Assembly: GCA_035283305.1 (NCBI GenBank)
Contig: DATEUE010000213.1
Span: 1 to 37,675 of the forward strand
DNA length: 37,675 nt
DNA from: Vicinamibacteria bacterium
GTDB lineage: Bacteria; Acidobacteriota; Vicinamibacteria; Fen-336
Direction: 5' to 3'
Positions 1 to 36,764 of this stretch are shown here, one piece after another (positions within the stretch are counted from its first letter, which is position 1; each line of letters begins with the position of its first letter). The translations under genes and the position numbers were made by a program. A model generated the notes under the pieces. That model was not told where the DNA came from and searched no databases. It saw only the letters and a list, made by a program, of their open reading frames with translations.

Positions 1-1765
1 CGATCGGCTCGCGCTGGCGCTCGTACTGGTTCATGCGCGGGAGGAGCACTCCGAGCTCACGCCCGCCGCGCGACACGCCCACGCGCGCGACGACCGCCTC
101 GCGGTGCGGCTCGCTCACCTGGTCGACAGCGAGGAACGTCAGCGTGTAGGCGCCCACCTGGGTCTTCTCCCCGACCTTCAGCTGCGCCTCGCGGCTCGTG
201 CCCATCGTGCTGCTGACCGCGATCGCGACGATCACGATCGCGGCACCCGCGTGCACGACGTACGAGCCGAAGCGGCGCCTGCCGCGCAGGAACCCCACCT
301 CGACGAGCGCCCGCCCCAGGCTCTCGCGGTACGCGCCGCGGCGCCGCGCGAGGGGCAGCCACAGCTCGCGCAGCGTCACCTGCAGCGTGTAGCCGCCGAA
401 CGCCAGCGCCACGAGCGTCCAGGGCCGACGCACCCCGAGCGCCGCCGCGACGGCGGCGACGAGCGCGGCGGAGGCGAGCGGCGGCACGAGCGCCTGGCGC
501 ACCTGCTGCGGCGTCGCCCGGCCCCACGGCAGCGCCGGCCCCACGCCCATCAGCAGCAGCAGCGCGATTCCGAGCGGGACCGCCATGCGGTCGAAGTAGG
601 GGCGGCCGACGCTCATCTGCACGCCGCGCAGAGTCTCCACCAGCAACGGAAACACGGTGCCCAGCAGCACCGTGAACGTGAACAGCACGAACAGCAGGTT
701 GTTGACGAGGAAGAGCGAGTCGCGGCCGAGTGCAGGCTCGATCGTCCCGTCGGCCGAGAGCCGGTCGATGCGCAGCGCGAGCAGAGCAATCGACCAGGCG
801 AGCGAGAGCACCAGGAACACGAAGATCGTCGGTCCGATGGCGCTCTGTGTGAAGGAGTGCACGGAGTTGAAGACGCCGGAGCGCGTCATGAACGTGCCGA
901 GGATCGTCAGCAGGAACGTGGCCAGTACCAGCGTCACGGTCCAGCCCTTGAGGACACCCTTGCGCTCGGTGAGCAGGGCCGAGTGCAGTGCCGCGGTGGC
1001 CGTGAGCCATGGCAGGAAGGACGCGTTCTCCACCGGGTCCCACGCCCAGTAGCCGCCCCAGCCCAGCACCTCGTAGGCCCACCAGCCGCCGAGCACGATC
1101 GCGACCGTGAGGAACGTCCACGGCACCATCAGCCAGGTCCGCAACGGTCGCAGGAAGTCGTGGCCCAGGCGGCCAGTGAGGAGCGCCGCGGACGCGAGGC
1201 CGAAGGGGATGGTCATGCCGACGAAGCCCAGGTACAGGAAGGGCGGGTGAATCGCCATCAGCAGGTGGTTCTGGAGCAGCGGGTTTGGCCCCGGCCCGTC
1301 CGCGGGCACGGGCGAGACCGTTTGGAACGGCTGGGCCGGGCCCGCGAGCAGGAACGCGAAGAAGGCCCCGCACGCGAGCCACACGGCCACGGCCCAGGGC
1401 ATGTACTCGGGGTGACGGTCGCGGTTCGCCCACGTGGCGATGCCGACGTAGGCGCCGATCACGAGGCCCCAGAACAGGATCGACCCCTCGAGCGAGGACC
1501 ACAGGCTGACGATCGCCACCCAATCGGGCACCGAGCGCGATCCCACCTGGGCCACGTAGCTGACGCTGAAGTCGCGCGCCAGGAGCGCCCACACCATCAG
1601 CAGGTTGGCGGCGATCATCGCCCCCGCAAACAGGTAGGCCAGGCGGCGCGTCCAGGCCCAGCCGGCGGCTGAGCGGCGCACGGCGGTTGCCCCACCCACC
1701 ACCGCGCCGACCGTCGACGCGAGCAGCGCGAGCAGGACGAGGTTGCGGCCGATCGCGGCGGTCAC
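1..1765 (-). CDS. ccmF: cytochrome c-type biogenesis heme lyase CcmF (C-terminal part runs off the window)
   Basis: Not in the supplied track because there is no stop inside the window. My translation of the minus strand from GTG at 1763-1765 gives VTAAIGRNLVLLALL...LGGWWAYEVLGWGGYWAWDPVENASFLPWLTATAALH...SVHSFTQS. It has the Trp-rich WWD heme-handling motif and many hydrophobic helices. The GTG overlaps the ccmE stop (GTGA). The listed ORFs 57..1592(-) and 104..1672(+) are shadows of this gene. Confidence 0.9.
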   Translation of the reverse strand, partial: MTAAIGRNLVLLALLASTVGAVVGGATAVRRSAAGWAWTRRLAYLFAGAMIAANLLMVWALLARDFSVSYVAQVGSRSVPDWVAIVSLWSSLEGSILFWGLVIGAYVGIATWANRDRHPEYMPWAVAVWLACGAFFAFLLAGPAQPFQTVSPVPADGPGPNPLLQNHLLMAIHPPFLYLGFVGMTIPFGLASAALLTGRLGHDFLRPLRTWLMVPWTFLTVAIVLGGWWAYEVLGWGGYWAWDPVENASFLPWLTATAALHSALLTERKGVLKGWTVTLVLATFLLTILGTFMTRSGVFNSVHSFTQSAIGPTIFVFLVLSLAWSIALLALRIDRLSADGTIEPALGRDSLFLVNNLLFVLFTFTVLLGTVFPLLVETLRGVQMSVGRPYFDRMAVPLGIALLLLMGVGPALPWGRATPQQVRQALVPPLASAALVAAVAAALGVRRPWTLVALAFGGYTLQVTLRELWLPLARRRGAYRESLGRALVEVGFLRGRRRFGSYVVHAGAAIVIVAIAVSSTMGTSREAQLKVGEKTQVGAYTLTFLAVDQVSEPHREAVVARVGVSRGGRELGVLLPRMNQYERQREPI

Positions 1766-2358
1766 GGGCGGGGCCGCGGGCTGGGCGCCGCGGCGGGCCC
1801 GCCGGTCCGGCCGTCCCCCTCGCGGACGCTGCGCATCAGCTCGTCGATCGCAGCGCCCTCGGCCTCGGTCGGCGCCCGGTACTCGTTGCCGTGGGACACC
1901 ATCAGACGGTGGCCCTCGAAGTGGCCGGCGCGAGAGAGCGTGCCCTCCACCACGACGCCGATCCGCTCGCGGAACATCTGGGGCGGCACTCCGCTGCACT
2001 TCACGTGCGTGAGCGCACCCGCGCGATCGACGACGTCGAACTCGACGCCCGAGGCGCCCGGGCCGCGCCGGATCGAGCCGTCGGCGACCAGGCCGCCGAG
2101 CCGGATCGTGGCGCCGATCGCCTTGTCACCGGCGGCCTTGAGCTCGGTCGGTCCCCAGTAGTAGACGAGGTTCTTGCCGATCCCGCCGAGGCTCAGCATG
2201 AGGATGGCGGCCGCCGCGACGGCCAGGGCCACGAGCGTGACCCGGCGCCGCTTCGTGCCCCAGAGCAGCGCGCCGGTCGGCGGCAGGGAAGAATGGCTAG
2301 AGGGCGGTGTCGCGACGGGACCTGGCCCGCCTATAGCGCCAGAAGACTGAGAAGGCAT
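1762..2358 (-). CDS. ccmE: cytochrome c maturation heme chaperone CcmE
   Basis: A single N-terminal TM helix (VTLVALAVAAAAILMLSL) is followed by NLVYYWGPTEL, an OB-fold-like body and an H-x3-Y heme-binding motif (SHGNEY; HDENY in E. coli). ATG at 2356-2358 is the only start codon upstream of the TM helix, so it overlaps ccmD by 62 nt. It sits between ccmD and ccmF. Confidence 0.85.
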   Translation of the reverse strand: MPSQSSGAIGGPGPVATPPSSHSSLPPTGALLWGTKRRRVTLVALAVAAAAILMLSLGGIGKNLVYYWGPTELKAAGDKAIGATIRLGGLVADGSIRRGPGASGVEFDVVDRAGALTHVKCSGVPPQMFRERIGVVVEGTLSRAGHFEGHRLMVSHGNEYRAPTEAEGAAIDELMRSVREGDGRTGGPAAAPSPRPRP

Positions 2359-2446
2359 ACCCCAGCAGTATAACGGCGCTCGCGACGTAGGCCGCGACGA
2401 CGAACTCCCAGCCGCCCTGGATCACCCCGGCGGACGCGCCGTTCAT
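2297..2446 (-). CDS. ccmD: heme exporter protein CcmD (49 aa)
   Basis: It lies below the ORF-track size cut-off and appears only as the tail of shadow ORF 2297..3772. Sequence: MNGASAGVIQGGWEFVVAAYVASAVILLGYAFSVFWRYRRARSRRDTAL, one TM helix plus a basic tail. ATG at 2444-2446 overlaps the ccmC stop (ATGA). It occupies the canonical position between ccmC and ccmE. Confidence 0.7.
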   Translation of the reverse strand: MNGASAGVIQGGWEFVVAAYVASAVILLGYAFSVFWRYRRARSRRDTAL

Positions 2447-3141
2447 CGCACTCCTCCAAGGGCTTCGGCCACCCGGACCGGCGGCGGCGGGGCGCTCTCC
2501 GCCTCGCGGCGCAGGAAGGCGAGCCGAGCGCGCAGCTCGACGAGGCCAATCAGCAGGAACAGCACGCCGAAGGCGTTGATGCGCAGCGGCCAGTGGAACG
2601 CCCGCGACACGGTCTCGGGCGTCGACTGCAGCTGGTGCAGCGAGTTCCACCAGCGCACGGAGAAGTAGACGAGCGGCACGTCGACGTATGCGATCACCAC
2701 GGCCACGGACGACCACACCGCGCGCTTGACGGGGTCGTCCACGAACTGCCGCAGCGCCAGGATGCCGCCGAAGGCGAACAGCAGCACGGCCGTGGTCGTG
2801 AGGCGCGGGTCCCAGTCCCACCACACCCCCCAGGTCGGGCGCGCCCAGATCGAGCCCTGGATGCAGACGAGCCCCGAGAGCACGACACCCGCTTCGATCG
2901 CGGCCTCGAGTCGCGCGTCCCACCTCCAGCCACCGCGCAGCAGCGAGACGAGCGCGCAGGCGAACGCGAAGGTCAGCACCAGCATGGCGTTCCACGCGGT
3001 GGGCACGTGGACGTACATGATGCGCTGCACCTCGCCCATGTAAGCCTCGCGCGGAGCGAAAGCGAGGCCCCAGGTCGAGCCCCAGGCCAAGAGAGCGAGC
3101 CCGAGGCCCGCCATCACGAACGGCCACACGCCTTTGCCCAT
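2443..3141 (-). CDS. ccmC: heme exporter membrane protein CcmC
   Basis: 232-aa polytopic membrane protein with the WWD motif WGVWWDWDPRLT and conserved His-containing loops (MYVHVP, SLHQ). GGAGA lies 4 nt upstream of the ATG. Position in the ccm operon fits. Confidence 0.9.
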   Translation of the reverse strand: MGKGVWPFVMAGLGLALLAWGSTWGLAFAPREAYMGEVQRIMYVHVPTAWNAMLVLTFAFACALVSLLRGGWRWDARLEAAIEAGVVLSGLVCIQGSIWARPTWGVWWDWDPRLTTTAVLLFAFGGILALRQFVDDPVKRAVWSSVAVVIAYVDVPLVYFSVRWWNSLHQLQSTPETVSRAFHWPLRINAFGVLFLLIGLVELRARLAFLRREAESAPPPPVRVAEALGGVR

Positions 3142-3150
3142 CGCGTCTCC

Positions 3151-3816
3151 TCAGTCCTCGACCACGCGCTCGAACACGAGCCCGCACAAGGACCAGTAGA
3201 TGGCGTCGAAAGCCACGAGCAGCATCGTCCACGCGCCGAGCTGCCCCATCGGATCGCCCAGGATCAGGAGCGAGGTCGCCTTCACCGCTCCGAGCAGCGC
3301 CGGCACCACGAGCGGGAACAGCAGCAGCGGCAGCAGCGTGTTGCGGGCTCGCACCTGGGCGGTCATCGCGGCGTAGAGGGTTCCGGGCGCCGAGAGACCG
3401 GCCGCACCCAGCACGATGATGCCGAGGAGCGCCGGCACCCTGGCCGTCCCCGCATCGTACAGCACCACCATCACCGGCACGAGGGCCGCGCCCAGCAGGG
3501 TGAGCTGCAGCAGGTTGGCGACCGCCTTGCCGTAGTAGAGTGCCCGCGGGTCGGCGGGGAGCAGCAACAGGCCCTCGAGCGCGTGCTGAGCCATCTCGCT
3601 CTCGAAGCTGTCGGCGAGCGCGAGCGTCGACGCGAGCAGCAGCGCGAGCCACAGGAAGCCGCCGGCGAACTCCCTGAGCGCGGCCGCGTTCGGGCCGATC
3701 GCGAAGCTGAACAGCAGCAGCGCGGAGGCGCCGAACACGAAGACGGCGACGAGCTGCGAGCGCGTGCGCCACTGCAGCAGCAGGTCCTTGCGCAGCGCCG
3801 CCACGAACTGGCTCAT
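3151..3816 (-). CDS. ccmB: heme exporter permease CcmB
   Basis: The internal ATG at 3814-3816 of track ORF 3151..4173 gives MSQFVAALRKDLLLQWRTRSQL... (221 aa, six hydrophobic helices). It overlaps the ccmA stop by 4 nt (ATGA). The 119-aa upstream extension in the track is Arg/Ala junk that overlaps ccmA. Confidence 0.85.
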   Translation of the reverse strand: MSQFVAALRKDLLLQWRTRSQLVAVFVFGASALLLFSFAIGPNAAALREFAGGFLWLALLLASTLALADSFESEMAQHALEGLLLLPADPRALYYGKAVANLLQLTLLGAALVPVMVVLYDAGTARVPALLGIIVLGAAGLSAPGTLYAAMTAQVRARNTLLPLLLFPLVVPALLGAVKATSLLILGDPMGQLGAWTMLLVAFDAIYWSLCGLVFERVVED

Positions 3817-4499
3817 GCGCGAGCGCTCCCGCCGGGCGCTTCGGCCGGCATCAGGGCGGCCTCCCCGCTCCAGGCGAGCCGCCCCTCCTCGAGCAGCAGC
3901 GCGTGGTCGCACAGCGCCCGGCCGCGCTCCACGAGGTGTGTCGCCATGATCACGGTGGCCGCTCGCGAGCGCAGCTCGGCGATGACGCGGTCGAGCAGCG
4001 CGAAGCCGGGCGGGTCGAGCTCGCCGTAGGGCTCGTCCAGCAGCACCACCGCGGCGTCCTGCAGCAGCACGCGCGCGAGCGCCAGGCGCTTGCGCATGCC
4101 GGCGGAGTAGCTCGAGACCGGGTCGTCCGCGCGCTCCTCGAGCCCCACCCGCGCGAGCAGGCCCGGATCGCACGGGCGGCCCAGGAAGCTCGCGGCGATC
4201 TCGAGGTTCTCGTGCGCGGTGAGTGCCTCGTAGTGGAAGGAGTGGTGGCCGAGGAGGGCGACCTGGCGCCGCACCTGGTCGCGCTCGTGGCGCACGTCGT
4301 GCCCGGCGACCCTGGCGCTGCCGTGGTCGGGGCGCAGCGCCGTCGCCAGCACGCGCAGCAGTGTCGACTTGCCGGAGCCGTTGCGACCCGCCAGCATCAC
4401 GACCGAGCCCGCGGGCACGCCCAGGCTCACGTCGCTGAGCGCCCAGCGCCGGCCGTAGCGCCGGCTGAGCCCGATCGTCTCGACGGCCAGGGTGGTCAT
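3813..4499 (-). CDS. ccmA: cytochrome c biogenesis ABC transporter ATP-binding protein CcmA
   Basis: Walker A GRNGSGKST, ABC signature YSAGMRKRLALA, Walker B VVLLDEP and H-loop ATH. It is the first gene of the ccmABCDEF order. Confidence 0.9.
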   Translation of the reverse strand: MTTLAVETIGLSRRYGRRWALSDVSLGVPAGSVVMLAGRNGSGKSTLLRVLATALRPDHGSARVAGHDVRHERDQVRRQVALLGHHSFHYEALTAHENLEIAASFLGRPCDPGLLARVGLEERADDPVSSYSAGMRKRLALARVLLQDAAVVLLDEPYGELDPPGFALLDRVIAELRSRAATVIMATHLVERGRALCDHALLLEEGRLAWSGEAALMPAEAPGGSARA

Positions 4500-7059: not shown

Positions 7060-9279
<2,220 letters not shown>

Positions 9280-9295
9280 GACGCTGGCGGAATCC

Positions 9296-11515
<2,220 letters not shown>

Positions 11516-11531
11516 GGCTTTGCTTCGAAGC

Positions 11532-13748
11532 CTACTCGGTCGCCGCCGTCGCCGGGTACAGCTTGGCGAACTCCGGCTCGCCGCGTAGCAGCGCCAGGTC
11601 GGGATCGCGGCGGGCCCAGTCCGGGTCGCGGAAGCCCGCATCCCAGGACTTCTGGATCGCGGCGAGCGCTTCGAATTTCTTGCCGAGCTGGCAGAACACG
11701 CAGGCCGCGTTGTAGAGCACGATCGCCTCGTTCGGCCGCAGCGCGATGGCGAGGCTCGCCTCGCGCTCGGCGGCGTCCACCATCCCGAGGCTCGCGTAGT
11801 CGCCGGCGAGCAGCGTGCGGGCGCGGGCGTCCTCCGGCACGGTCTTGATATGGGCCTCGAGCGCCTGGATCTCACGCTGGCGCATCTTGTCGAGCGCGTC
11901 CTTCTTGCCGAGCGCGCCGAGCGCGTTCGTCACCGGCACGTAGACGTTGTAGTCCCCGCCGCTCGCCTCGAGCGCGGCGTCGCCGAGGCGCGCCACCTCC
12001 TGGTACTGGCCCGAGGCAAAGAGCGCGCGCAGCAGCAGGTAGTAGGCGCCCTCGGTGTCGGCCTTGCGCTCGATCGCCTGGCGCACGGCGGCCACGGCCT
12101 GCTCGTACTGTCCTTCGGCGTACAGGATCCAGCTCTCGGCCACCAGGACTTCGGGCAGGTCGCGCCGCAGGGCACTCGCCCGCTGCGTGGCCGACACGGC
12201 CCGGCCGATCCAGCCCTGCGCGCGCTCGTAGTGGTAGTGGAGCTCGGCGCACACGTTGGCGATGGCGGCGTGCGCGAGCGCGAACGTGGGGTCGAGCGAG
12301 ACCGCGTTCTCGAACATCTGCAGCGCGAACTCCAGATCCTGGCGCGTGAGCCGGCGCGCGAAGCTCTTGCCGCGCAGGTAGAGATCGTAGGCCTGCAGGC
12401 TCTGCGTCGGCTTGACGGCGAGGGCCTCCTGCTCCTGCGGCGAGAGCTGCACCCGCAGCGCCTCGGCGATCTTGCGCGCGATCTCGTCCTGCACCTCGAA
12501 CACGTCGGCCATCTCGCGGTCGTAGCGCTCGGACCAGAGCGGGAAGTCGGTCTGCGTGTCCACGAGCTGCGCGGTGATCCGGAGCCGCTGCCCCGCCCGG
12601 CGCAGCGTGCCGGTGAGCACGCAGGACGCCTTGAGCTGCTGGCCGATCTGGACGGGCGTGACAGGCTTGTCGCGGTACGCGAGCACCGTCGGGCGCGAGA
12701 AGATCCGAAGGCCCTTGATCTTCGAGAGCTCCGTGATGATGTCCTCGGTCACCCCGTCGCGCAGGTACTCGTCCTCCTTCACCCCGGAGAGGTTCTCGAA
12801 GTAGAGCACCGCGACTGAGCGCTCGGCGGCCTTCTGGGCGCCGCTGCGCGTGTCGGGGGCCTCCGCCGCGCGCCGCCCGCCGGAGTCGGCGTCGCGCTTC
12901 AGGCGCATCAGGTCGGTCTTGAGGTCGGTGGCGGTCTGATAGCGGAGGTTGCGGTCCTTCTCCAGCGCCTTGCCGAGGGCGCGGCTGAGGTCGGCCGGGA
13001 GCGATGGGTTGACCTGCGACAGCGGCAGCGGCTCGCGGTTGAGGATGGCGTCGAAAACGACCGCCGAGGTCTCGCCCTGGAACGGCAGCACTCCGGTCGC
13101 CATCTGGTAGAGCACCGTGCCGAGCGAGAAGAGGTCGGTGCGCGAGTCGGTGAGCTGACCGCGCGCCTGCTCGGGCGACATGTAGGACACCGTTCCCATC
13201 GTGGTGCCCGCGCTCGTCAGCTCGTTGGGCTGAATCGCCGTCGGCGCCTCCGAGTGCTCTCCGCCCGCGGGCCGCGCGCGCTCGATCTTGGCGAGGCCGA
13301 AGTCCAGGATCTTCGCCTGCCCGCGCGGCGTCACGAAGATGTTGGCCGGCTTGAGGTCGCGGTGCACGATCCCCTTCGCGTGCGCCGACTCGAGCGCGTC
13401 CGCGATCTGGATCCCGAGGTCGAGCAGCGTGCCGAGCTCGACCGGCCCCTTGCGGATCCGGTCCGCGAGCGTCTCGCCCTCGAGCAGCTCCATCGCGATG
13501 AAGTGCTGACCCTCGTGCTGGTCGATGGCGTGGACGGTACAGATGCCGGGGTGGTTGAGCTGCGAGGCCGCCTTGGCCTCGCGCTGGAAGCGCTGCAGCG
13601 CGTCCGCGTCCTGCGCCATCTCCAGCGGCAGGAACTTGAGAGCGACGTGCCGCCCGAGCTTGGTGTCCTCGGCCTCGTAGACGACGCCCATCCCGCCGCT
13701 GCCCAGCTTCGACAGGATCCGGTAGTGCGCGACCGACTGGCCGATCAT
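11532..13748 (-). CDS. Ser/Thr protein kinase / TolB_N-like / TPR (array copy 3)
   Basis: 738 aa with the same motif set ([60 protein letters not shown] tail). Its ATG overlaps the copy 4 stop (ATGA at 13745-13748). Confidence 0.9.
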
Positions 13749-15991
13749 CGGTCGTCGCCCTTCGGGAGGGCCGGCCCGCCCTCCATGGCATCGGCCGGGT
13801 AGAGCCGCTCGAACTCGGGGTCGCCGTGCAGGAGCGCCAGGTCGGGATCGCGCCGCGCCCAGCTCGGGTCCTTGGAGCCCGCTTCCCAGGCCTTGCGCAG
13901 CACGCTGAGCGCCTCGGCCTTGCGTTCCAGCTGGCAGAAGACACAGGCAGCGTTGTAGAGCACGGTGGCCTCGTTCGGGCGTAGCGTGATCGAGAGGTTC
14001 GCCTCGCGCACGGCCTCGTCGACGCGGCCCATCGCGGCATAGTCACCGGCCAGCACGCTTCGGGCGCGGGCGTCTTCCGGCACGGTCTTCAGGTGGTTCT
14101 CGAGCGCGAGCACCTCGCGCTGCCGCATGTTCTCGAGAGCGTCCTTCTTGCCGAGCGCTCCGAGCGCGTTGGTGATCGGCACGAAGACGTTGTAGTCCGT
14201 GCCGCTCGCCTCGAGCGCCGCGTCGGCCACCGCCGCCACGTCGTGGTATCGCCCTGCCGCGAAGAGCGCCCTGAGCATCAGGTAGTAGGCGCCTTCGGTG
14301 TCGCGCTTCCGCTCGACCGCCTCCTGCGCCACGTGGGCGGCCTCCTCGTACTGGGCCTGCGTGTACAGGATCCAGGCCTGGGCGATCTTGACCTCGGGCA
14401 GGTGGGGCTGGAGTGCTATCGCCTTGCGCGAGGCGTCGCGCGAGCGGTCGAGCCAGACCTTCTGGCGCTCGTAGTTGTAGTGGTACTGGGCGCACACGTT
14501 CGAGATCGCCGCGTAGGCGAGCGCGAACTCGTGGTCGAGCGAGACCGCGTTCTCGAACATCTGCAGCGCGAACTCGAGGTCCTGGCGGGTGTGGCGCCGC
14601 GCGTAGCTGCGGCCGCGCAGATAGAGATCGTAGGCCTGCAGGTTGGCGGTCGGCTTCGCCGCGATCGCCTCCTGCTCCTGGGGCGAGAGTGTCACGCGCA
14701 GCGCCTCGGCGATCTTGCGGGCGATCTCGTCCTGCACCGCGAACACGTCGGCCATCTCGCGGTCGTAGCGCTCGGACCAGAGCAGCGAGTCCGACGAAGC
14801 GTCCACCAGCTGGGCGGTGATGCGGAGACGGCTGCCCCCGCGACGGATGCTGCCGGCCAGCACGGAAGCGGCCTTCAGCTGCTGGCCGACCTGCGCAGTC
14901 GCCACCGGCTTGTCGCGGAACGGAAGCACCGCCTGGCGCGACAGCACCTTGAGGCCCTTGATCTTGGAGAGCTCCGTGATGATGTCCTCGGTCACTCCGT
15001 CGCGCAGGTACTCGTCCTCTTTCACCCCGGAGAGGTTCTCGAAGTAGAGCACGGCCACCGACCGCTCGGCGGCCTTCTGGGCGCCGCTGCGCGAGTCGGA
15101 AGTCTCGGCCGCGCGCCGGCCGCCGGAGTCGGTGTCGCGCTTCAGGCGCAAGAGGTCGGTCTTCAGCTCCGTGGCCGTCTGGCAGCGCAGGTTGCGGTCC
15201 TTCTCGAGCGCCTTCGACAGGATGCGTCCGAGCTCCGCGGGCAGCGCGGCGTTGAGCTGGCTGATCGGCTGCGGCTCGCGGTTCAGGATCGCCTCGAACA
15301 CGACGGCCGAGGTTTCGCCCTGGAACGGCAGGACACCCGTCGCCATCTGGTACAGCACCGTCCCGAGCGAGAAGAGGTCCGTCCGCGCGTCCGTCAGCTG
15401 CCCGCGCGCCTGCTCCGGCGACATGTACGATACCGTCCCCAAGGTGGTGCCCGCGCTCGTCAGCTCCTGCGGCTGCACGGCCGTCGGGGCCTCGGAGTGC
15501 TCGCTGCCGGCAGGTCGGGCCCGCTCGATCTTCGCAAGGCCGAAGTCCAGGATCTTCGCCTGCGCGCGCGGTGTCACGAAGATGTTGGCGGGCTTCAGGT
15601 CCCGGTGCACGATCCCCTTCGCGTGCGCCGACTCGAGCGCGTCCGCGATCTGGATCCCGAGCTCCAGCAAAGGCGCAAGCTCGATCGCTCCCCGCCGGAT
15701 CCGCTCGGCGAGCGTCTCACCCTCGAGCAGCTCCATCGCGATGAAGTGCTGGCCTTCGTGCTGGTCGATCGCGTGGACCGTGCAGATGCCTGGGTGGTTG
15801 AGCGCCGAGGCCGCACGCGCCTCGCGCTGGAAGCGCTGGAGCGCGTCCGCGTCCTGGGCCATCTCCACGGGCAGGAACTTGAGCGCGACGTGCCGGCCGA
15901 GCTTGGTGTCCTCGGCCTCGTACACCACCCCCATCCCGCCGCTGCCGAGCTTGGCCGTCACCCGGTAGTGCGCGACGGACTCGCCGATCAT
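13745..15991 (-). CDS. Ser/Thr protein kinase / TolB_N-like / TPR (array copy 4)
   Basis: 748 aa with the same architecture. It starts 11 nt downstream of the dehydrogenase stop. Confidence 0.9.
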
Positions 15992-16002
15992 CGACCGCTC
16001 GC

Positions 16003-17118
16003 TCAGAACGCCTCCTTGTTGACGACGAACGGCATCTGCTTCGGGTCGCCGCCGTAACGGCCCTCGAGCACGTCGATCGTACCCTGCACGCAGCGGCCGG
16101 CCATGCCGATGTCCGGGTCGGGAGACAGCCGCGTGGCACGGGCCGCCGAGGCCGCGTGCGGGAACAGCCGCAGCGTGGGCACGAGGGTCGCATCCCGCAG
16201 CGGGCTGTCATCGGGTAACGGCTCAGTTTCGAACACGTCGAGCGCCGCGCCTGCGATCCAGCCCTCGCGGAGCGCCCGCACCAGCGCCTGCTCGTCCACC
16301 ACCGGCCCACGAGAGGTGTTCACCAGGTAGGCGGTCTTCTTCATCATCTTCAGCCGCGCTTCGTCGATCAGATGATAGGTCGGCTCCTTCGCCGCACCCG
16401 GCATGGTGAGCGGCACATGCAGCGAGACGAAGTCGGCACGCCGCAGAGCGTCCTCCAGGGACACGGCCTCGATCGTCTGCTGCCGCGACGCGAGCCCCTC
16501 GCGGTGACGCAGGTCCATGACGGCCCGAACGCTCGCCACGAACCCCGAGAGCGCGGCCGAGCCGCGACTGCTGTGGCACAGCACGTCCATGTCGAAGCCG
16601 ACTGCCTTTGCGACCATGCTCTTGCCGATGCGCCCCATGCCCACGACCGCGAGCGTGCGGCCGGTCGCCTCGTCGCCGAGCCACGGCAGGTAGGGGTGCC
16701 AGGTCGTCCACTGCCGCTCGCGGACCTGCAGCTCGGCCGGATACAGGCGGCGCGCCACGGCCCCGAGCATGAAGAAGGCGTACTCCGCGGTCGCGTCGGT
16801 CAGCACGTCGGGCGTGTGGGTGAAGGGGATCTTGTGGCGATTGGCGGCGGCCCGGTCGATGTTGTCGACCCCGACCGCGATCTGGGAGACGACCTTGAGC
16901 CCCGACGCCTTCCCGGCCGCGAGCAGCTCCTCGTCGACTGTGTCGCGCAGCGTCGTGATCAGCGCCTGGATCCCCGCGCGCAGCTTCTCGATCACGAGCG
17001 CCTTCGGAGGCGGCTGGACCTCCGGGTAGACCTCGACGGCGTAGCCCCGCTCGCGTAAACGGTCGAGCGCGGCCTGGCCGATGTCACAGGTGGCGTAGAC
17101 GCGGACAGGCTCGAGCAT
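16003..17118 (-). CDS. D-isomer-specific 2-hydroxyacid dehydrogenase (glyoxylate/hydroxypyruvate reductase-like)
   Basis: NAD-binding [12 protein letters not shown]. Catalytic Arg/Glu/His context: [33 protein letters not shown] prefer the start at ATG 17116-17118 ([12 protein letters not shown]...). The track start at 17166 adds 16 low-GC3 codons and remains possible. Confidence 0.85.
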
Positions 17119-17205
17119 GTGAGGCGCGAAGGGTACCTGGCTAGCGAGGGACGCAGAGAATACCATCCCGCCGAGGACGCTGGGACGCTGGCGCGCCGTC
17201 GACTG

Positions 17206-17331
17206 CTATCTCTTCGCCGCTTTCCCGAAATGCATGGGAGTTCCGATCAGGTCCTTTTTCTTGGCGATCTTCTTCTTGGCGATCTTCTTCTTGGCGGTCT
17301 TCCTCTTGGCGGTCTTCCTCTTGGCAGCCAT
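17206..17331 (-). CDS. 41-aa lysine-rich micro-protein (candidate substrate peptide or small basic protein)
   Basis: Absent from the track (under 60 aa). ATG at 17329-17331 is preceded by GGAGGAG and a 4-nt spacer. Sequence: MAAKRKTAKRKTAKKKIAKKKIAKKKDLIGTPMHFGKAAKR, with stop TAG at 17206-17208. 34 of 41 codons end in G/C, and 23 of 24 do in the repeat part. In the competing track frame (17141..17536, EEDRQ repeats) only 3 of every 5 repeat codons end in G/C. Confidence 0.65.
   Translation of the reverse strand: MAAKRKTAKRKTAKKKIAKKKIAKKKDLIGTPMHFGKAAKR
17254..17325 (-). repeat. 15-nt tandem coding repeats (pentapeptide AKRKT x2, AKKKI x2, AKKK)
   Basis: The minus strand reads GCCAAGAGGAAGACC GCCAAGAGGAAGACC GCCAAGAAGAAGATC GCCAAGAAGAAGATC GCCAAGAAAAAG. 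The units are contiguous with no spacers. Confidence 0.9.
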
Positions 17332-17335
17332 CAGG

Positions 17336-17342
17336 CTCCTCC
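17336..17342 (-). promoter_or_regulatory. Shine-Dalgarno GGAGGAG for the micro-ORF, 1 nt after the radical SAM stop
   Basis: The minus strand reads TGA A GGAGGAG CCTG ATG. Confidence 0.6.
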
Positions 17343-17343
17343 T

Positions 17344-19485
17344 TCAGTGGCCCGAAACCAGCGGAGTTCGGCGGATCAACACGTCTCCCTGAGGTGCGAT
17401 CGAGAAATGCGACGGGGTCAGCCTGGGTACACGCCCGCGGCAGGCTGAAGGACGCCGGCACGTACCTCCACGCGCGCGAAGCGCGCGAGCCGCCCGCCGG
17501 ATTGGCCTGACAGGATCGCCGGCGGACACGATCCATCCCTCCGAAACCCTCCTCCCGACCGCGCGCACGAGCCGGAAGAGGCGGTCCACCGCCGGCGCCG
17601 GAGGCGAGTAGCCGCCCAGGGGAACCGCCAGCGCGAGGTAGCGGGGCCCGTCGCGAAGGAGCAGGCCGGCGTCCACCAACGGCCCGAGCCGCTGCTCGAT
17701 CTCATCCTGTGACAGCGGCACTTCTGGAACGCGCTCGAGGCAGTCGGCAAGACGGCGAAGGTCACTGGCACGATCACAGGCTTGATAGAGAAGTCGGTCG
17801 ACACCGGCGAGCACCGTGAGGAGCGCGTGTCGCCCGGGTCTCATGTCCCACACCAGGAGGCGCTTTCCGAGATCGACGGAGAAGAGGTCGTGCTGCCCCT
17901 CCCGCTTCTGCCAGGCTCGCAGCTCGTGCTCGAGCGGTGCGACGTATCCTCTCACGTCGCGCCGGTCGCGATAGCGGAAAGTGAAGAAGTGCGCCAGGTT
18001 GGCGAGCGCTTCGTCGGGAAGCGGGTAGACGTATCGGTAAGAGGGTATCGGCCCGACCTGCTCGAAGCCGAGCTGCTCGGCATCGTCGAAGTTCGGACTG
18101 AAGCGGTCGAGCCGGATGATCCCGTAGTCCTCGGGCGCGGGGAGGTGGGCCAGCAACGGAATCAGCCTGGCCATCCGGCGGTACTCCTCCGCCGGCTCTC
18201 CCGGAAACCCCCAGATGAGGTTCCACGAGGGCTCGACGCCCAGCTCCTTGCACCACTTCAGGAGCTGCACGTTCTGCAGCGCGCTCACGCCCTTGCGCAT
18301 CAACCTCAGGATCGGGTCGCTCAGGCTCTCGATGCCGGGCTGGATTCTCCGGATGCGCGCGTCCCGTAGCATCCTCACCTGCTCCTTGCTGAGGTTGGAC
18401 TTGACCTCGTAGTACAAGGAGGGCCCGCGCCGCAGGGCAGCCAGTTCCGGGATGAAGTCCTTGAAATAGCCCATGTCCAGGATGGAGTCGGTCGCTCCCA
18501 TGTTGCAGCCCGGGTGACGCTTGGCGAGATGGTGTAGCTCGTCGAGCGCCCGCCGCGGGGACTTGCTGCGATACGCCATCGTCTCGCCGTTCAGGCCGCA
18601 GAAAGTACAGTGTCTCCGCTCGCCCCACCAGCAGCCCCGCGAGGTCTCGAAGAAGAGGCTCGGCGTCCACTCGTGTGCGAAGCGACTCGCCTCGAACTGC
18701 TCGAAGTAATCGCCGTAGTCGGGGTAGGGCAGCGCGTCGAGGTCCTGCACCATCGGCCCCGGGGCGAAGCGACCGCTCGCGAACTCGGCCTCGATGCCCT
18801 GCCGCGTCCGGACGCCGGCAAGGCCGCAGATCGACTTCCCGTCGAGCAGGCGCCGCGCCAGCTCGGGAAAGACGATGTCGCCTTCTCCAGCCACGACGGC
18901 ATCCACGAACGGGAACTGGCGGACCGTCTCCGCCCCCATCACGCCTTCGCAGTTCGCGCCGCCAAAAACGACCGGGAGCTCGGGAGCGGCCTGCTTGACG
19001 AGCCGCGCCAGTGCCAGCGAAGCCACGTGCTGCTGGAACGTGCTGGTGAAGCCCACGACGCGGGGGCGGGCGCGGAGGATCTCCTCCCGGCACCACTCGA
19101 GGAACCCGTCCACCTGCTCGCGCGCGAGCAGCACACGCCGGATGAGGGCGGGGGATGCCGGCCCTGTCGCGTCGTTGGTGGTCCAGGTCGCGCGCTTCCG
19201 GAGGATCTGATCGACGTACTCCTCGTCGCGGGCCCGGGGTCCAAAGAGCGCGTGCGAGAAGATCCACTCGCCGGCGAGATCCTCGATCGAGGGCCTGCCT
19301 TCGACGGACAGCCAACGGTAGAAGCGCTGCCCCGTGAGCTCCGCGAATCGGATCGAGAAGTAGCGAATCCGCGAGGGTATTCCCTGCGCCTGGAGCGCCG
19401 CCTTGAGCAGGCTCAAGCCGATCGAGGGACAGAATGCGTGGGCGAACGGCATGCACACGAGAAGGACCTCGGCGTCTTTGCTCAA
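17344..19485 (-). CDS. B12-binding-domain radical SAM enzyme, RiPP-maturase-like (resembles TIGR03975-type C-methyltransferases)
   Basis: The N-terminus LLVCMPFAHAFCPSIGLSLLKAAL and the segment VVGFTSTFQQHVASLALARLV..VVFGGANCEG look like a B12-binding domain. The Fe-S motif is ETSRGCWWGERRHCTFCGLNG. A radical SAM core follows (IQPGIESLSD, NLIWGFPGE). The C-terminal helix-rich region looks like a winged-helix/RRE. The TTG start overlaps the kinase stop (TTGA). Family assignment is from memory, not a search. Confidence 0.8.
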   Translation of the reverse strand: MSKDAEVLLVCMPFAHAFCPSIGLSLLKAALQAQGIPSRIRYFSIRFAELTGQRFYRWLSVEGRPSIEDLAGEWIFSHALFGPRARDEEYVDQILRKRATWTTNDATGPASPALIRRVLLAREQVDGFLEWCREEILRARPRVVGFTSTFQQHVASLALARLVKQAAPELPVVFGGANCEGVMGAETVRQFPFVDAVVAGEGDIVFPELARRLLDGKSICGLAGVRTRQGIEAEFASGRFAPGPMVQDLDALPYPDYGDYFEQFEASRFAHEWTPSLFFETSRGCWWGERRHCTFCGLNGETMAYRSKSPRRALDELHHLAKRHPGCNMGATDSILDMGYFKDFIPELAALRRGPSLYYEVKSNLSKEQVRMLRDARIRRIQPGIESLSDPILRLMRKGVSALQNVQLLKWCKELGVEPSWNLIWGFPGEPAEEYRRMARLIPLLAHLPAPEDYGIIRLDRFSPNFDDAEQLGFEQVGPIPSYRYVYPLPDEALANLAHFFTFRYRDRRDVRGYVAPLEHELRAWQKREGQHDLFSVDLGKRLLVWDMRPGRHALLTVLAGVDRLLYQACDRASDLRRLADCLERVPEVPLSQDEIEQRLGPLVDAGLLLRDGPRYLALAVPLGGYSPPAPAVDRLFRLVRAVGRRVSEGWIVSAGDPVRPIRRAARALRARGGTCRRPSACRGRVPRLTPSHFSIAPQGDVLIRRTPLVSGH

Positions 19486-33499: not shown

Positions 33500-33705
33500 A
33501 CTGCGCTCGTAACGTCAGGGTGCCTCCCGTTTCGGGAGGGTAAAAGGGAAGCAGGTCGAAAACCTGCGCGGTCCCGCCACTGTAGCCGGCGAGCCCGCTT
33601 CCATAGGCGCCTGTAGGGCGCCGCCACTCGGTGACCTCGCAAGAGGAGGCCGGGGAAGGTCGGGAGCGAGGTGACGACCCGGGAGCCAGGAAACCTGCCC
33701 TGACC
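33500..33705 (+). promoter_or_regulatory. cobalamin (B12) riboswitch
   Basis: GGGUGCC..., the conserved core UAAAAGGGAAGCAGGUCGAAAACCUGCGCGGUCCCGCCACUGUA, then GCCACUCGG...GGGGAAGGUCGG, and the B12 box GAGCCAGGAAACCUGCC (33685-33699). It lies upstream of a TonB-dependent receptor / BtuF-like operon. Boundaries are approximate. Confidence 0.85.
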
Positions 33706-33837
33706 GACGTGAAAGACGTACTAGAGGCTTCTCGCGTGAGGGAGCACCTGGACCGGCGGCCTGAAACAGGCCACCTCCCAACAGACGGCTCGCCGCGAAT
33801 CGTCCACCGTGAGGCTCGAGGGCCTTCGGCGGACAGG

Positions 33838-33851
33838 CCTCCGCAAGGAGG
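33838..33851 (+). promoter_or_regulatory. putative SD-sequestering hairpin of the riboswitch expression platform
   Basis: CCUCC GCAA GGAGG: a 5-bp stem with a GNRA loop. The 3' arm is the ribosome-binding site (AAGGAGG) 4 nt upstream of the receptor ATG at 33856. Confidence 0.4.
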
Positions 33852-33855
33852 AACC

Positions 33856-36078
33856 ATGCGCACCGTGCTTCGTCTCTTCTTTTGTCTCTGCGGCTCGTGG
33901 GCGGCGGTCGCGGCCGCCGAGCCAATGGCCCTCTCGGGGTCGCTCGTGGGTGTCGTGCGCACGAGCGACGGCCTGCCGCTGCCTGGCGTGGCCGTCGTCA
34001 TCGACGGGCCGTCGAGCGAGCGTCGCGTGACGACGGGCCCCGACGGCTCGTATCGAGCGGCGGCGCTCGCGCAAGGCGCCTACACGCTTCGCGTCGACGC
34101 ACCCGGGCTCGCGCTGCGCGAGGCGGCTTTCGCATCGGTCGGGGCCGCGGAAACGCGGCAGGACCTCGTGCTGTCGCCCGCGCCGGTCGCGGAGCGCGTC
34201 GTGGTGAGCGCCACGCGCCGCGAGGCCACGCTGTCGACGCTCGGCACGAGCGCGGACGTGCTCGAGCGCGAGGCGATCGACGAGCGTGCGGCAGCGTCGC
34301 TTTTGCCGCTGCTGCAGGGTGTGCCGGGCGTCGCGACCGCCCGCAGCGGCCAGACGGGCCAGCAGGGCTCCGCGTTCATCCGCGGCGGCGAGTCGCGCTA
34401 CGCGCGGGTGATGGTCGACGGCGTGCCGGTGAACCAGCCGGGCGGCGCCTACGACTTCGGCACGGCGCTGCCCTTCGAGCTCGAGCGGGTCGAGATCGTG
34501 CGCGGCGCCGCCAGCAGCCTCTACGGGACCGACGCGCTCGCCGGTGTCGTGAGCCTCACGACCCGCCGCGCGCGCGCCGGCGCGAGCCCGTCATTGCGCG
34601 CCGAGGGCGAGGGCGGCTCCTTCGACTGGCAGCGCTTCCTGGGCGCGACCTCGGGGGCGAGCGGAGCCTTCGACTGGAACGCCGGTGCGCAGCGCCTCAC
34701 CACGGACAACGAGGCGCCGAACAGCGCGTTCGAGCAGACCGCGGCGGCGCTCTCCGCGGGGCTCAAGCTCGACGAGCGCACGCGGGCCCGCGCCGTCGTG
34801 CGCTTCGACGGCAGTACCGTCGGGACGCCGGGGCCGACCGCCTTCGGCCCGCCCGATCAGGACGCGTCCTTCGAGCGCGAGGACCTCGTGCTCTCGGCCA
34901 CGCTGCGCCGCGACCACGCCCGCTTCTCGCAGCAGGCGAGCGTCGGCTACTCGCGCACCGACCAGCTCTCGCTCGACCCCGCCGACTCCGGGTGCTACGT
35001 GCCCGAGTGGCAGGACCAGCTGGGCAGCTTCCCGATGTGCGACTTCCCGAACCCGGCCGGATTCCGGAACCAGACGGATCGGCTCGCCGTCGGGTACCAG
35101 GCGGACGTGTCCGTCGGGACGCGGCACATGCTGACCGCCGGGACGGAGCTCGAGCACGAGACGGGCGCGCTCGGCGACCGATCGGAAGACCTGCTGCGGC
35201 CGGAGCGCACGAGCTTCGGGGCGTACCTGCAGGACCGCGTGCTGCTGGGCGCGCGCGCGTACCTGACGCTCGGCGCCCGCGTCGAAGACAACGGCAGCTA
35301 CGGCACGCACGTCGTCCCCCGCATAGCGCTCGCCTTGCGCCTGCGCGAGGGCGAGGACGCGACGACGCTGCGGACGAGCGCCGGCATGGGGATCAAGGAG
35401 CCGAGCTTCTTCGAGTCGTACGGGGAGTCGTTCTTCGCGAAGGGCAACCCCGAGCTCGACCCCGAGCGCAGCACCACCTTCGACGTGGGTGTCGAGCAGC
35501 GGCTCTTCGCGAGCCGGCTGCGCGCCTCGCTCACGTACTTCCACCACGACTACCAGGACCAGATCGCCTACAGCGTCGTCGACTTCACGAGCTTCGAGGG
35601 CACCTACGTGAACCTCGCCCACACCCGGGCGCAGGGGCTCGAGTTGGCGCTCGAGGCGCGGCCCGTGCCCGAGCTCGCGCTCTGCGGCCAGTACACGTTC
35701 CTCGACGGCGAGATCCTCGAGAGCCCGAGCGACTTCGATCCCGTCTACGCGGTCGGGCAGCCGCTGCTGCGCCGGCCGAGGCACCAGGGCTCGCTCGGCG
35801 CCCTGCTGTCGTTCCCGCGCTGGAGTGCCGGGGTCACGCTGGCGCTCGTCGGTGAGCGGGCGGACAGCGATTTCGTGGGTCTCGGCCTCGCGACCAACCC
35901 CGGATACGCGCGGCTCGAGGCCCGCCTGCGCTTCCTGCTGGCGGGACCGCTCGAGGCGTACCTGGTCGGCGACAACCTGCTGAACGCGGAATACCAGGAA
36001 GCGCTCGGCTATCCCGCGCTCGGCCGCGCCGTGCGCGGCGGCCTGCGGCTGCGCCTGGGCGGCGGCGGGCGCCCGTGA
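33856..36078 (+). CDS. TonB-dependent outer-membrane receptor with N-terminal carboxypeptidase-regulatory-like domain (probable corrinoid receptor)
   Basis: Signal peptide MRTVLRLFFCLCGSWAAVAAA. CarbopepD_reg-like segment (GVVRTSDGLPLPGVAVVIDG...GSYRAAALAQGAYTLRV). Plug motifs (VVVSATRRE, AFIRGGESRYARVMVDGVPVN, VEIVRGAASSLYGTDALAGVV). A long beta-barrel follows. The 75-codon upstream extension in the track lies over the riboswitch. Confidence 0.85.
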   Translation: MRTVLRLFFCLCGSWAAVAAAEPMALSGSLVGVVRTSDGLPLPGVAVVIDGPSSERRVTTGPDGSYRAAALAQGAYTLRVDAPGLALREAAFASVGAAETRQDLVLSPAPVAERVVVSATRREATLSTLGTSADVLEREAIDERAAASLLPLLQGVPGVATARSGQTGQQGSAFIRGGESRYARVMVDGVPVNQPGGAYDFGTALPFELERVEIVRGAASSLYGTDALAGVVSLTTRRARAGASPSLRAEGEGGSFDWQRFLGATSGASGAFDWNAGAQRLTTDNEAPNSAFEQTAAALSAGLKLDERTRARAVVRFDGSTVGTPGPTAFGPPDQDASFEREDLVLSATLRRDHARFSQQASVGYSRTDQLSLDPADSGCYVPEWQDQLGSFPMCDFPNPAGFRNQTDRLAVGYQADVSVGTRHMLTAGTELEHETGALGDRSEDLLRPERTSFGAYLQDRVLLGARAYLTLGARVEDNGSYGTHVVPRIALALRLREGEDATTLRTSAGMGIKEPSFFESYGESFFAKGNPELDPERSTTFDVGVEQRLFASRLRASLTYFHHDYQDQIAYSVVDFTSFEGTYVNLAHTRAQGLELALEARPVPELALCGQYTFLDGEILESPSDFDPVYAVGQPLLRRPRHQGSLGALLSFPRWSAGVTLALVGERADSDFVGLGLATNPGYARLEARLRFLLAGPLEAYLVGDNLLNAEYQEALGYPALGRAVRGGLRLRLGGGGRP

Positions 36079-36764
36079 CCAGCGAGCGGGTCCTCGTCGC
36101 CTGGAGCAGCGGGAAGGACAGCGCCTTCGCCCTCCACGTCCTGCGCGCGCAGGGTGTTGCGGTCGCTGGCCTGCTCACCACGATCAACGCGGCTTTCGAC
36201 CGGGTGGCGATGCACGCCGTCCGCGTCGCGCTGCTGCGCGCCCAGGCCGAGGCGGTCGGCCTGCCGCTCTTCGAGGTGGGCATCCCCTCACCGTGCCCGA
36301 ACGAGGCCTACGAGGCCGCCATGGCGGGGGCGCTCGCGAGCGCGCGCGAGCGCGGGATCACGGCCGTGGCCTTCGGCGATCTTTTCCTCGAGGACGTGCG
36401 GCGCTACCGCGAGGAGCGCATGGCGGGCACGGGGCTGCGGCCGCTGTTCCCGCTCTGGGGCCGGCCGACGCGCCAGCTGGCCGAGGAGATGATCGCGCTC
36501 GGTCAGCGGGCCGTGCTCACGTGCGTCGACCCGCGCGCTCTGGCGCGCGACTTCGCCGGGCGCGCCTTCGACGCCGCGCTGCTGCGCGACCTGCCTGATA
36601 GCGTCGACCCGTGCGGCGAGAACGGCGAGTTCCACAGCTTCGCCTGGGACGGCCCTGCGTTTTGCCGTCCCGTCCCGGTGCGTGCCGGCGAGGTCGTGGA
36701 GCGCGACGGCTTCGTGTTCGCCGACCTGGTTCCCGAGACGGACGGCGCAAGGCAGTGCGCGTGA
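36075..36764 (+). CDS. DUF71 / Dph6-related PP-loop ATP pyrophosphatase (ATP_bind_4 family)
   Basis: PP-loop variant VAWSSGKDSAFAL, FGDLFLEDVRRYRE, and C-terminal DPCGENGEFHSF. The GTG start overlaps the receptor stop (GTGA). Confidence 0.7.
   Translation: MTSERVLVAWSSGKDSAFALHVLRAQGVAVAGLLTTINAAFDRVAMHAVRVALLRAQAEAVGLPLFEVGIPSPCPNEAYEAAMAGALASARERGITAVAFGDLFLEDVRRYREERMAGTGLRPLFPLWGRPTRQLAEEMIALGQRAVLTCVDPRALARDFAGRAFDAALLRDLPDSVDPCGENGEFHSFAWDGPAFCRPVPVRAGEVVERDGFVFADLVPETDGARQCA

Follow-up and report, generated by a model that had tools for sequence, protein, structure and literature searches.

TIGR03975 designates the RiPP maturation radical SAM C-methyltransferases, B12-dependent enzymes that use S-adenosylmethionine (SAM) in the maturation of RiPPs, which are ribosomally synthesised peptides modified after translation. 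The C-methyltransferases PoyB and PoyC of the polytheonamides are reportedly of this type. Other systems join a precursor, or part of one, to the modifying enzyme itself. Leader-fused RiPP enzymes have been engineered, including the leader-LctM fusion 'ConFusion', leader-fused heterocyclases and microviridin ligases. In the borosins, OphMA-type fusions of enzyme and core modify their own core, the chemistry being N-methylation by a SAM methyltransferase. Here we describe a locus in a 37,675-nucleotide stretch of DNA from a Vicinamibacteria bacterium (contig DATEUE010000213.1 of assembly GCA_035283305.1, positions 1 to 37,675; hereafter the window), in which the gene for a TIGR03975 enzyme is followed by a mini-gene encoding a polybasic product of 41 residues, the K-peptide.

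Very short precursors are known from the clavusporins, in which the 39-mer MpcA is multiply C-methylated at unactivated Val, Ile, Thr and Pro carbons by the B12-radical-SAM enzyme MpcB (PMC10849626). The mpc clusters are actinobacterial, carry genes for a transporter, an S9 peptidase and a DUF5825 protein (MpcC), and encode an enzyme that needs the MpcA leader; their precursors had to be found manually in high-GC DNA (PMC10849626). More generally, antiSMASH labels TIGR03975 loci 'RiPP-like', and some authors discard those that lack a precursor as false positives (PMC9426513). Our search of the full-text literature found no lysine-rich, polybasic or kinase-linked radical-SAM RiPP, nor a triad of such a peptide with a radical-SAM enzyme and a kinase.

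The open reading frame (ORF) described here is a genuine coding mini-gene, and we consider it somewhat better than an even bet that its polybasic, disordered product is a dedicated partner, most likely the substrate, of the C-methyltransferase encoded upstream. The two genes are translationally coupled, and they are co-inherited through one acidobacterial enzyme clade. The enzyme scores 650 bits against TIGR03975 (NCBIfam cutoff 281.85) and combines a B12-binding domain (PF02310) with a Radical_SAM domain (PF04055). Cys285, Cys293 and Cys296 are invariant across 25 homologues. Its AlphaFold2 (AF2) model has a predicted local distance difference test score (pLDDT) of 82, and a sequence search of the PDB returned a distant match to TokK only. 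The enzyme gene ends with a TGA at 17346-17344, and the ATG of the mini-gene lies 12 nt beyond it.

The K-peptide, MAAKRKTAKRKTAKKKIAKKKIAKKKDLIGTPMHFGKAAKR, contains 15 Lys, 3 Arg and a single acidic residue, an Asp. Codons 3-26 form five units (AKRKT, AKRKT, AKKKI, AKKKI and AKKK), encoded by a repeat of 4.8 copies with 94% matches whose Tandem Repeats Finder (TRF) score of 109 is the highest in the window, the runner-up scoring 63. No other of the window's 595 six-frame segments (20 residues or longer) is Lys-rich; the Lys share of neighbouring proteins is 3.1%. A first-pass annotation of the window, made from its letters, had described the same composition and five 15-nt units, a strong Shine-Dalgarno (SD) site, G or C at the third position of 23 of the 24 repeat codons, an upstream B12-binding radical-SAM gene and five kinase genes in the same gene string. 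All of this was reproduced on recomputation, with Pfam finding the Pkinase domain in all five kinase genes, and it need only be added that the mini-gene lies on the minus strand. One word of that annotation has to be withdrawn: the ORF is not unannotated, having already been called, though without a name, in public assemblies (P0121; NCBI nr, ENA and JGI).

The pairing of enzyme and peptide is conserved. Genome and metagenome collections supplied 160 loci that encode a relative of the enzyme, and all frames of these were scanned. A clade was defined on a neighbour-joining tree of the radical-SAM enzymes, and 27 of its loci had room downstream of the enzyme gene. In 26 of these 27, all from one monophyletic enzyme clade, a Lys-rich ORF follows the radical-SAM stop on the same strand, at a gap of -1 to 39 nt. 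The Lys-rich ORFs start with ATG, and an SD-like motif is present in 26 of the 27 loci. The exception, L091, has an acidic ORF of 47 residues in place of the K-peptide. Outside the clade, no Lys-rich ORF was found downstream of the radical-SAM gene in about 130 other loci. A small ORF that adjoins the maturase gene, shares its orientation and is kept across taxa is what is expected of a RiPP precursor, and further contigs agree. The clade is large: enzyme clusters at identities of 54% and above number at least 120. Its genome members are all Acidobacteriota, from Vicinamibacteria, Thermoanaerobaculia, Holophagales and Terriglobia.

Since every one of the six frames stays open across AAG-rich repeats, an ORF is by itself no proof of a gene, and it is the patterns of substitution that discriminate. 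L010 and L040 differ at seven nucleotides of the ORF; read in the Lys frame, every one of these differences is synonymous, whereas the other sense frames yield 0-1 synonymous changes. For L086 and L087, the Lys frame renders 8 of 11 changed codons synonymous, and the other frames one or two. Within the window's own lineage, the orthologues are MAAKKKTARKKTAKKKVVKKKDQIGTPMHFGKAAKK in L161 and MVAKKKAGRKKTARKKAAKKKDKIGTPMHLGRAAKR in L168, whose enzyme is 88% identical. Both keep the C-terminal tail as D[LQK]IGTPMH[FL]G[KR]AAK[RK] (IGTPMH.G.AAK), while the basic part drifts. Codon changes in this tail are synonymous in 5 of 8 and 4 of 8 cases in the Lys frame, and in none in the overlapping 'EEDRQ' frame. 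The choice of the Lys frame over the EEDRQ frame, made before any comparison with relatives, is therefore correct by the synonymous patterns of the tail and of both other pairs. Further, the diverged orthologue L161 matches the window at 100% over the SD site and spacer, though the flanking 3′ end of its radical-SAM gene has diverged. The G+C content of the whole ORF is 0.34, 0.41 and 0.83 at the first, second and third codon positions, and reaches 0.90 at the third position of neighbouring genes; this excess at the third position is what real genes of this genome show. Together, these comparisons show purifying selection on the frame of the peptide.

The same evidence bears on whether the mini-gene has a peptide function at all. 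It could instead be a slippage-prone intergenic repeat, or a translated polybasic stalling element that affects only messenger RNA fate or coupling. Low complexity, derivation from repeats, six open frames across the AAG-rich region and a very variable length, from 24 residues in L169 to 141 in L106, would all suit such an element. However, it would not account for an ATG and SD in 26 of 27 loci, for a stop position and tail conserved in the window lineage, or for divergence that is synonymous only (L010/L040) or largely so (L086/L087). Nor would it explain why the polybasic frame is maintained in L168 despite decayed nucleotide repeats. An Rfam scan found no RNA family at the mini-gene locus, and the genes downstream differ between lineages, leaving no common gene to regulate. 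We regard this explanation as very improbable.

Variation in repeat number, which had been predicted from the window sequence, was found as four public alleles in the window species: (KRKT)2(KKKI)2, as in the window, (KRKT)1(KKKI)3, (KRKT)2(KKKI)1 and (KRKT)1(KKKI)2. They are carried on otherwise near-identical contigs and align as clean 15-nt indels. As all four are in frame and differ by one five-residue unit, they represent length polymorphism, not phase variation. A phase-variable contingency locus was accordingly rejected, since a 15-nt unit never switches the reading frame. In L168 the exact repeats have decayed with charge retained, which points to selection on polybasic character and not on the repeat itself.

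Between sub-clades the nucleotides of the mini-gene cannot be aligned. What is retained is a product of the form M-A/P-(K-rich)n, usually with a short non-basic tail. The N-terminal parts resemble each other in composition only, and the tail is hypervariable: those of relatives include VGCIFPG, AGCIGPG, TGCIYP, PVGDVFG, PMGDIFP, GPVKAF, GPILGNGND, GEIQGGQD, DISNGQD, TVGIRNG and DVGMI. One locus, L002, carries at 760-882 a second Lys-rich ORF ahead of its kinase gene, MAPKKTAQQTGTKAKATGKRTTKKKPYDGVIIPGKAGNRE, with a tail like that of the window (DLIGTPMHFGKAAKR); two such peptides are thus possible in one locus. Lys-rich ORFs of 28-47 residues also occur upstream of the enzyme in a distant radical-SAM clade at about 44% identity (L119, L121, L123, L125, L130 and L160), in L123 and L125 as tandem pairs, for example MTSKKAAKKLKKGKKILPTKNLEISITK. 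This is apparently a second, independent association of basic N-terminal regions with the enzyme family.

Such a composition raises the question of whether the peptide acts through its charge, as a polycationic mini-protein like histone H1 or Hc2 that binds nucleic acid, or else polyphosphate or the ribosome. The basic region would then be the functional part, and the enzyme would tune it or act elsewhere. The Lys/Ala(/Pro) repeats resemble those of H1-like tails, and in mycobacteria the H1-like tail of HupB is subject to kinase regulation. The longest relatives, of 64-141 residues with AKKAP repeats, weakly match models of the Rv3852 family, Burkholderia H1-like proteins and Hc2. Further, the polybasic region and not the tail is the universal feature, some members having no tail, and an intracellular role fits the lack of a conserved exporter or protease. 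However, those matches lie far below curated cutoffs and reflect composition: a relative of 64 residues scores 14-30 bits against NF038053, NF038052 and PF07382, whose cutoffs are 40-135. Searches of NCBIfam and Pfam placed neither the window peptide nor eight relatives in a curated family. Of the earlier suggestion of an H1/Hc-like protein, then, the composition stands and the family relationship does not. Strict coupling to one radical-SAM clade and a tail conserved within the lineage would also be left unexplained. We consider this account rather unlikely as the whole explanation, and it is only partly a rival, being compatible with a peptide that is also a substrate.

The substrate reading draws on the relatives of the enzyme. 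Bacillales and other TIGR03975 loci encode precursors of 55-63 residues, with the pattern M..EKK..LTPD.FKVN..GEV.I...(acidic spacer)...VSVSVSI or VVSVTIEL, and a Bryobacteraceae locus of the family has an NHLP-type precursor and a LanM. Sister-clade precursors typically have C-terminal cores rich in Val, Ile, Ser and Thr, and their conventional leaders match no curated family. Since small precursors stand beside other TIGR03975 enzymes, the expected partner of an enzyme of this family is an adjoining small peptide. The family leader motif, L[TS]P..F.[VI]...GE[VL].I, is absent from the K-peptides and present at the C-terminus of the enzyme. The K-peptide is therefore most likely an unusual, leaderless substrate.

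This leader-like motif, overlooked by the first-pass annotation, sits in an extension by which the clade enzymes exceed the length of the family model by about 70-90 residues. An Arg-rich linker, variable in all clade members, forms its first part and is followed by the conserved motif, which reads R688-LTPSHFSIAPQGDVLI-R705 in the window against a clade consensus of RLT.SQFSV...GEV.IR. The motif was found in about 100 of the best 120 enzyme homologues. A loose regular expression for it matches the six-frame background at 5.7e-5 per residue. Across 26 clade C-termini it gave 11 strict and 7 near matches, where 0.09 would be expected. A profile built from the enzyme tails alone was run on 26,145 six-frame segments of loci that had not been placed in the clade. 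With a clade fragment, L106, set aside, its top-ranking matches were five leaders of conventional precursors, aligned exactly on the leader motif. An hhalign comparison of 100 enzyme tails with 12 leaders gave a probability of 96.5% and a P value of 7e-10 over 21 columns. A hidden Markov model of the full sister-clade precursor found no significant match to the enzyme tails; motif-level profiles alone succeeded. These profile comparisons indicate that the C-terminal motif of the enzyme is homologous to the N-terminal leader of conventional sister-clade precursors.

The AF2 model suggests how a leader in this position might act. Residues 694-705, beyond the disordered linker, form a beta-hairpin with a pLDDT of 88, as would be expected if the hairpin packed onto the folded body of the enzyme. 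Upstream of the linker, residues ~534-618 have the topology of a RiPP recognition element (RRE) and appear RRE-like: strands at 534-538, 542-547 and 556-560, helices at 561-572, 576-582 and 593-605, and a final strand at 609-618 as the wing. We propose that the leader motif docks in cis on this RRE-like domain, so that a leader on the substrate would no longer be needed. The leaderless peptide would then be C-methylated, probably on aliphatic or Thr/Pro residues of its short non-basic tail; the candidate stretch in the window peptide is DLIGTPMHF. The modified product may stay inside the cell as a polycationic mini-protein, with its production or use tied to signalling by the neighbouring kinase. 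As a complete scheme, a natural 'leader-in-cis' system derived from RiPPs, in which the leader has been captured by the enzyme and a leaderless, repeat-built mini-protein is never exported or cleaved and acts intracellularly with a receptor Ser/Thr kinase, is a possibility we put forward tentatively and hold to be doubtful as yet.

Full fusions of enzyme and precursor occur in two other TIGR03975 clades. In L112 (radical-SAM ORF 1679-3919) and L018 (5941-8151), the ORF continues into leader-like or full precursor sequence; in L018 it is flanked as well, upstream by an NHLP-type precursor and downstream by a LanM-like gene. Such natural fusions suggest a plausible evolutionary route, namely fusion followed by loss of the core. 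Read-through of the stop, fusing enzyme and peptide, was considered and rejected: the two are in the same frame here, yet in only 11 of 25 loci.

A number of observations weigh against the substrate and leader-in-cis readings. The peptide's standing as the most likely substrate derives from gene linkage and the enzyme family, and the docking of the hairpin is read from its pLDDT. Eight clade enzymes without the motif (L086-88, L003, L092, L095 and L010/L040) are still paired with a peptide, so a cis-leader is not obligatory for pairing. Clade enzymes carry an average net charge of +6, which is more basic than the -12 of their relatives; an acidic docking surface for the polycation was rejected on this ground, and plain electrostatic capture is unlikely. 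The tail is not universal, since L169 (MPAKKKTGGGKKKGRQPGKKKKTK), L089, L094, L082 and L083 are basic throughout. In such members, the modified residue could sit in the basic part, or the peptides are perhaps unmodified. Finally, K/R swaps in the repeat region of the window lineage are synonymous more often in the EEDRQ frame (6/10) than in the Lys frame (2/9), which makes the repeat part alone ambiguous and leaves the tail and the other lineages to support the frame. The original idea of a substrate with the tail as its core has thus gained from the coupling to a TIGR03975 gene, from a pairing confined to one clade and from conservation of the tail within the lineage, while its second half falls short for tail-less relatives such as L169.

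The second conserved partner is a kinase. The fetched sequence includes a Pkinase gene in 21 of 29 loci of the clade, compared with 25 of 132 others (odds ratio 11, Fisher p 6e-8). The eight clade loci without one are mostly contigs of 2-4.7 kb, and ORF clustering recovered kinase fragments in four of these eight. In the window, the stop of a 1107-residue receptor-type kinase overlaps the radical-SAM start. Orthologues of 1106-1112 residues (69% identity in L076) occupy the position immediately upstream of the enzyme gene in L076, L168, L169 and the P0014 contig, and four more contigs carry the same triad of kinase, enzyme and peptide. Three arrangements occur: kinase>enzyme>peptide, enzyme>peptide>kinase and enzyme>peptide<kinase. 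Three gene orders argue for functional linkage and not for common descent of one operon. The clade kinases vary in their C-terminal module (TPR, CsgG/LpoB-like with TPR, or beta-propeller), mostly placed after a transmembrane segment.

This linkage would also suit a peptide that serves the kinases directly, as phospho-acceptor, pseudosubstrate or regulator through the basophilic KRKT site, with the radical-SAM gene incidental. The window allele carries two [KR][KR]xT units, and kinase genes are the conserved neighbours in all three arrangements. However, the peptides of L008, L010/L040 and L098 have no Ser or Thr, so that KRKT cannot be the basis of the kinase link, and within the window species KRKT is interchangeable with KKKI, in one or two copies between alleles. 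Further, the peptide is tied to the radical-SAM gene while the kinase varies in position and strand, and a kinase-linked sister radical-SAM clade has ordinary, non-basic precursors. Of the phospho-acceptor proposal the genomic link to Ser/Thr kinases therefore survives and the site does not, and we judge the proposal improbable. In that sister clade (L014, L016, L017, L020, L024, L101, L102, L104 and L105), precursors of about 65 residues follow the radical-SAM gene on the minus strand, with the family pattern …NRE.LE.AG…EQ..AI..L… and cores that end in HHH. The link between kinase and radical-SAM gene is consequently wider than the polybasic peptides.

Across the 27 loci, conservation of neighbours is confined to the radical-SAM and kinase genes. 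It extends to no protease, exporter or dehydrogenase, and the leader protease and exporter looked for in a RiPP cluster are thus missing. The D-2-hydroxyacid dehydrogenase gene downstream of the mini-gene (16003-17166) was rejected as part of the system, a point that the first-pass annotation had also missed: it occurs only in close relatives (L081, L162-168), and its place is taken by a melibiase or other genes at 65-67% enzyme identity. The coordinates of the features are collected in Table 1.

Table 1. Features of the K-peptide locus and its surroundings, in positions of the window
Feature	Position	Strand	Basis or remark
B12-binding radical-SAM enzyme, TIGR03975 'RiPP maturation radical SAM C-methyltransferase', 713 aa	17344..19485	minus	NCBIfam, Pfam; exact start uncertain, a 704-aa call also exists
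RRE-like domain, residues ~534-618 of the enzyme	17632..17886	minus	Order of secondary structure in the AF2 model
Arg-rich disordered linker, residues ~658-685 of the enzyme	17431..17514	minus	pLDDT <50 (AF2)
Leader-like motif at the enzyme C-terminus, RLTPSHFSIAPQGDVLIR, residues 688-705	17371..17424	minus	Profile comparisons
Shine-Dalgarno site AGGAGGAG	17336..17343	minus	4 nt ahead of the K-peptide ATG
Polybasic mini-gene (K-peptide), 41 aa + stop	17206..17331	minus	ATG at 17331, stop TAG 17208-17206
15-nt tandem repeat, AKRKT/AKKKI units	17254..17325	minus	TRF; copy number polymorphic in frame
Non-repetitive C-terminal tail DLIGTPMHFGKAAKR, candidate modification site	17209..17253	minus	Conserved in L161 and L168
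Shadow ORF, 131 aa, 'EEDRQ' frame	17141-17536	minus	Overlaps the mini-gene
Shadow ORF, 109 aa	17119-17448	plus	Antisense to the mini-gene
Receptor-type Ser/Thr kinase, 1107 aa	19482..22805	minus	Kinase domain, transmembrane segment, CsgG/LpoB-like + TPR region
Four paralogous Ser/Thr kinase-TPR genes	13745-15991, 11532-13748, 9296-11875, 7060-9279	minus	In tandem after the dehydrogenase gene; membership of the system uncertain
TonB-dependent receptor ORF	33631-36078	plus	
Periplasmic binding protein ORF	36611-37630	plus	Downstream of the TonB-dependent receptor

The two shadow ORFs are those listed by the track that accompanied the first-pass annotation. They stay open for the sole reason that AAG/GCC repeats contain no stop in any frame. 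The kinases beside one sub-clade (L008, L010, L095, L098 and L099) are closer to the four tandem paralogues, at 45-48% identity, than to the 1107-residue kinase. A scan for terminators and promoters around the mini-gene found one weak terminator-like hairpin at 17179-17164, no more than expected by chance. In the stretch 17141-17200, compared with L081, L166 and L167, near-identical contigs turn unrelated about 25 nt past the peptide stop and remain so until the start of the dehydrogenase gene; this switch may be a recombination breakpoint or a variable intergenic cassette. A PADLOC scan gave only generic kinase-domain matches (PD-T4-6) and none for the radical-SAM enzyme or the peptide, after which a defence-system reading was dropped. 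Further away, a cobalamin riboswitch (RF00174, 95.9 bits; 33501-33716, plus strand) precedes the TonB-dependent receptor and, with it and the periplasmic binding protein, makes up an operon for B12 uptake, at a distance of about 14 kb from the gene of the B12-dependent radical-SAM enzyme.

The K-peptides provide the small gene that had been missing from a large acidobacterial clade of TIGR03975 enzymes. They also represent a type of precursor that leader-based or RRE-based mining would miss, because the N-terminal part is polybasic and of low complexity. If the cis-leader is functional, it would offer a natural precedent for leader-fused RiPP enzymes, and a compact two-gene system with which to install C-methyl groups on short peptides. 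If the leader-in-cis scheme as a whole is true, RiPP machinery has been repurposed for signalling or the regulation of a polycationic effector, and not for a secreted natural product. The conserved kinase neighbour, present also in the sister clade with ordinary precursors, points to an as yet unexplored connection of peptide modification with eukaryote-like kinase signalling in Acidobacteriota.

Judged on sequence, the locus combines features that would be unusual for a RiPP precursor and its maturase: a polybasic, repeat-built precursor, a leader-like motif on the enzyme, a kinase neighbour and no conserved genes for processing or export. It shares with proteusin-type TIGR03975 systems the enzyme family and a small ribosomal peptide encoded alongside. 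In contrast to those systems, the K-peptide has no NHLP, Nif11 or other recognisable leader and begins with a polybasic low-complexity repeat, the leader-like motif is on the enzyme, and a Ser/Thr kinase, with no protease or exporter, is the sole conserved neighbour. The clavusporins likewise pair a very short precursor with a B12-radical-SAM enzyme. However, MpcA has a conventional leader, no transporter, S9 peptidase or DUF5825 gene is found at the window locus, and C-methylation of the K-peptide is a prediction. The H1-like proteins (Hc2, NF038053, the Rv3852 family and the HupB tail) share the Lys/Ala/Pro repeat composition, whereas the K-peptide is much shorter, strictly coupled to a radical-SAM gene and scores below their cutoffs.

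The fusions offer the nearest parallels for the enzyme itself. As in the borosins, part of a precursor is covalently fused to the C-terminus of the modifying enzyme, and full fusions exist within the TIGR03975 family (L112 and L018). Unlike the borosins, the window enzyme bears the leader-like part alone, with nothing after it in many members, and its chemistry differs. In engineered leader-fused enzymes, a flexible linker tethers the leader, which allows the enzyme to accept leaderless cores, and the same arrangement would apply here. Those enzymes are laboratory constructs, whereas the acidobacterial enzymes would be a natural case, in which the leader is predicted to dock in cis and to free the substrate from the need for a leader of its own.

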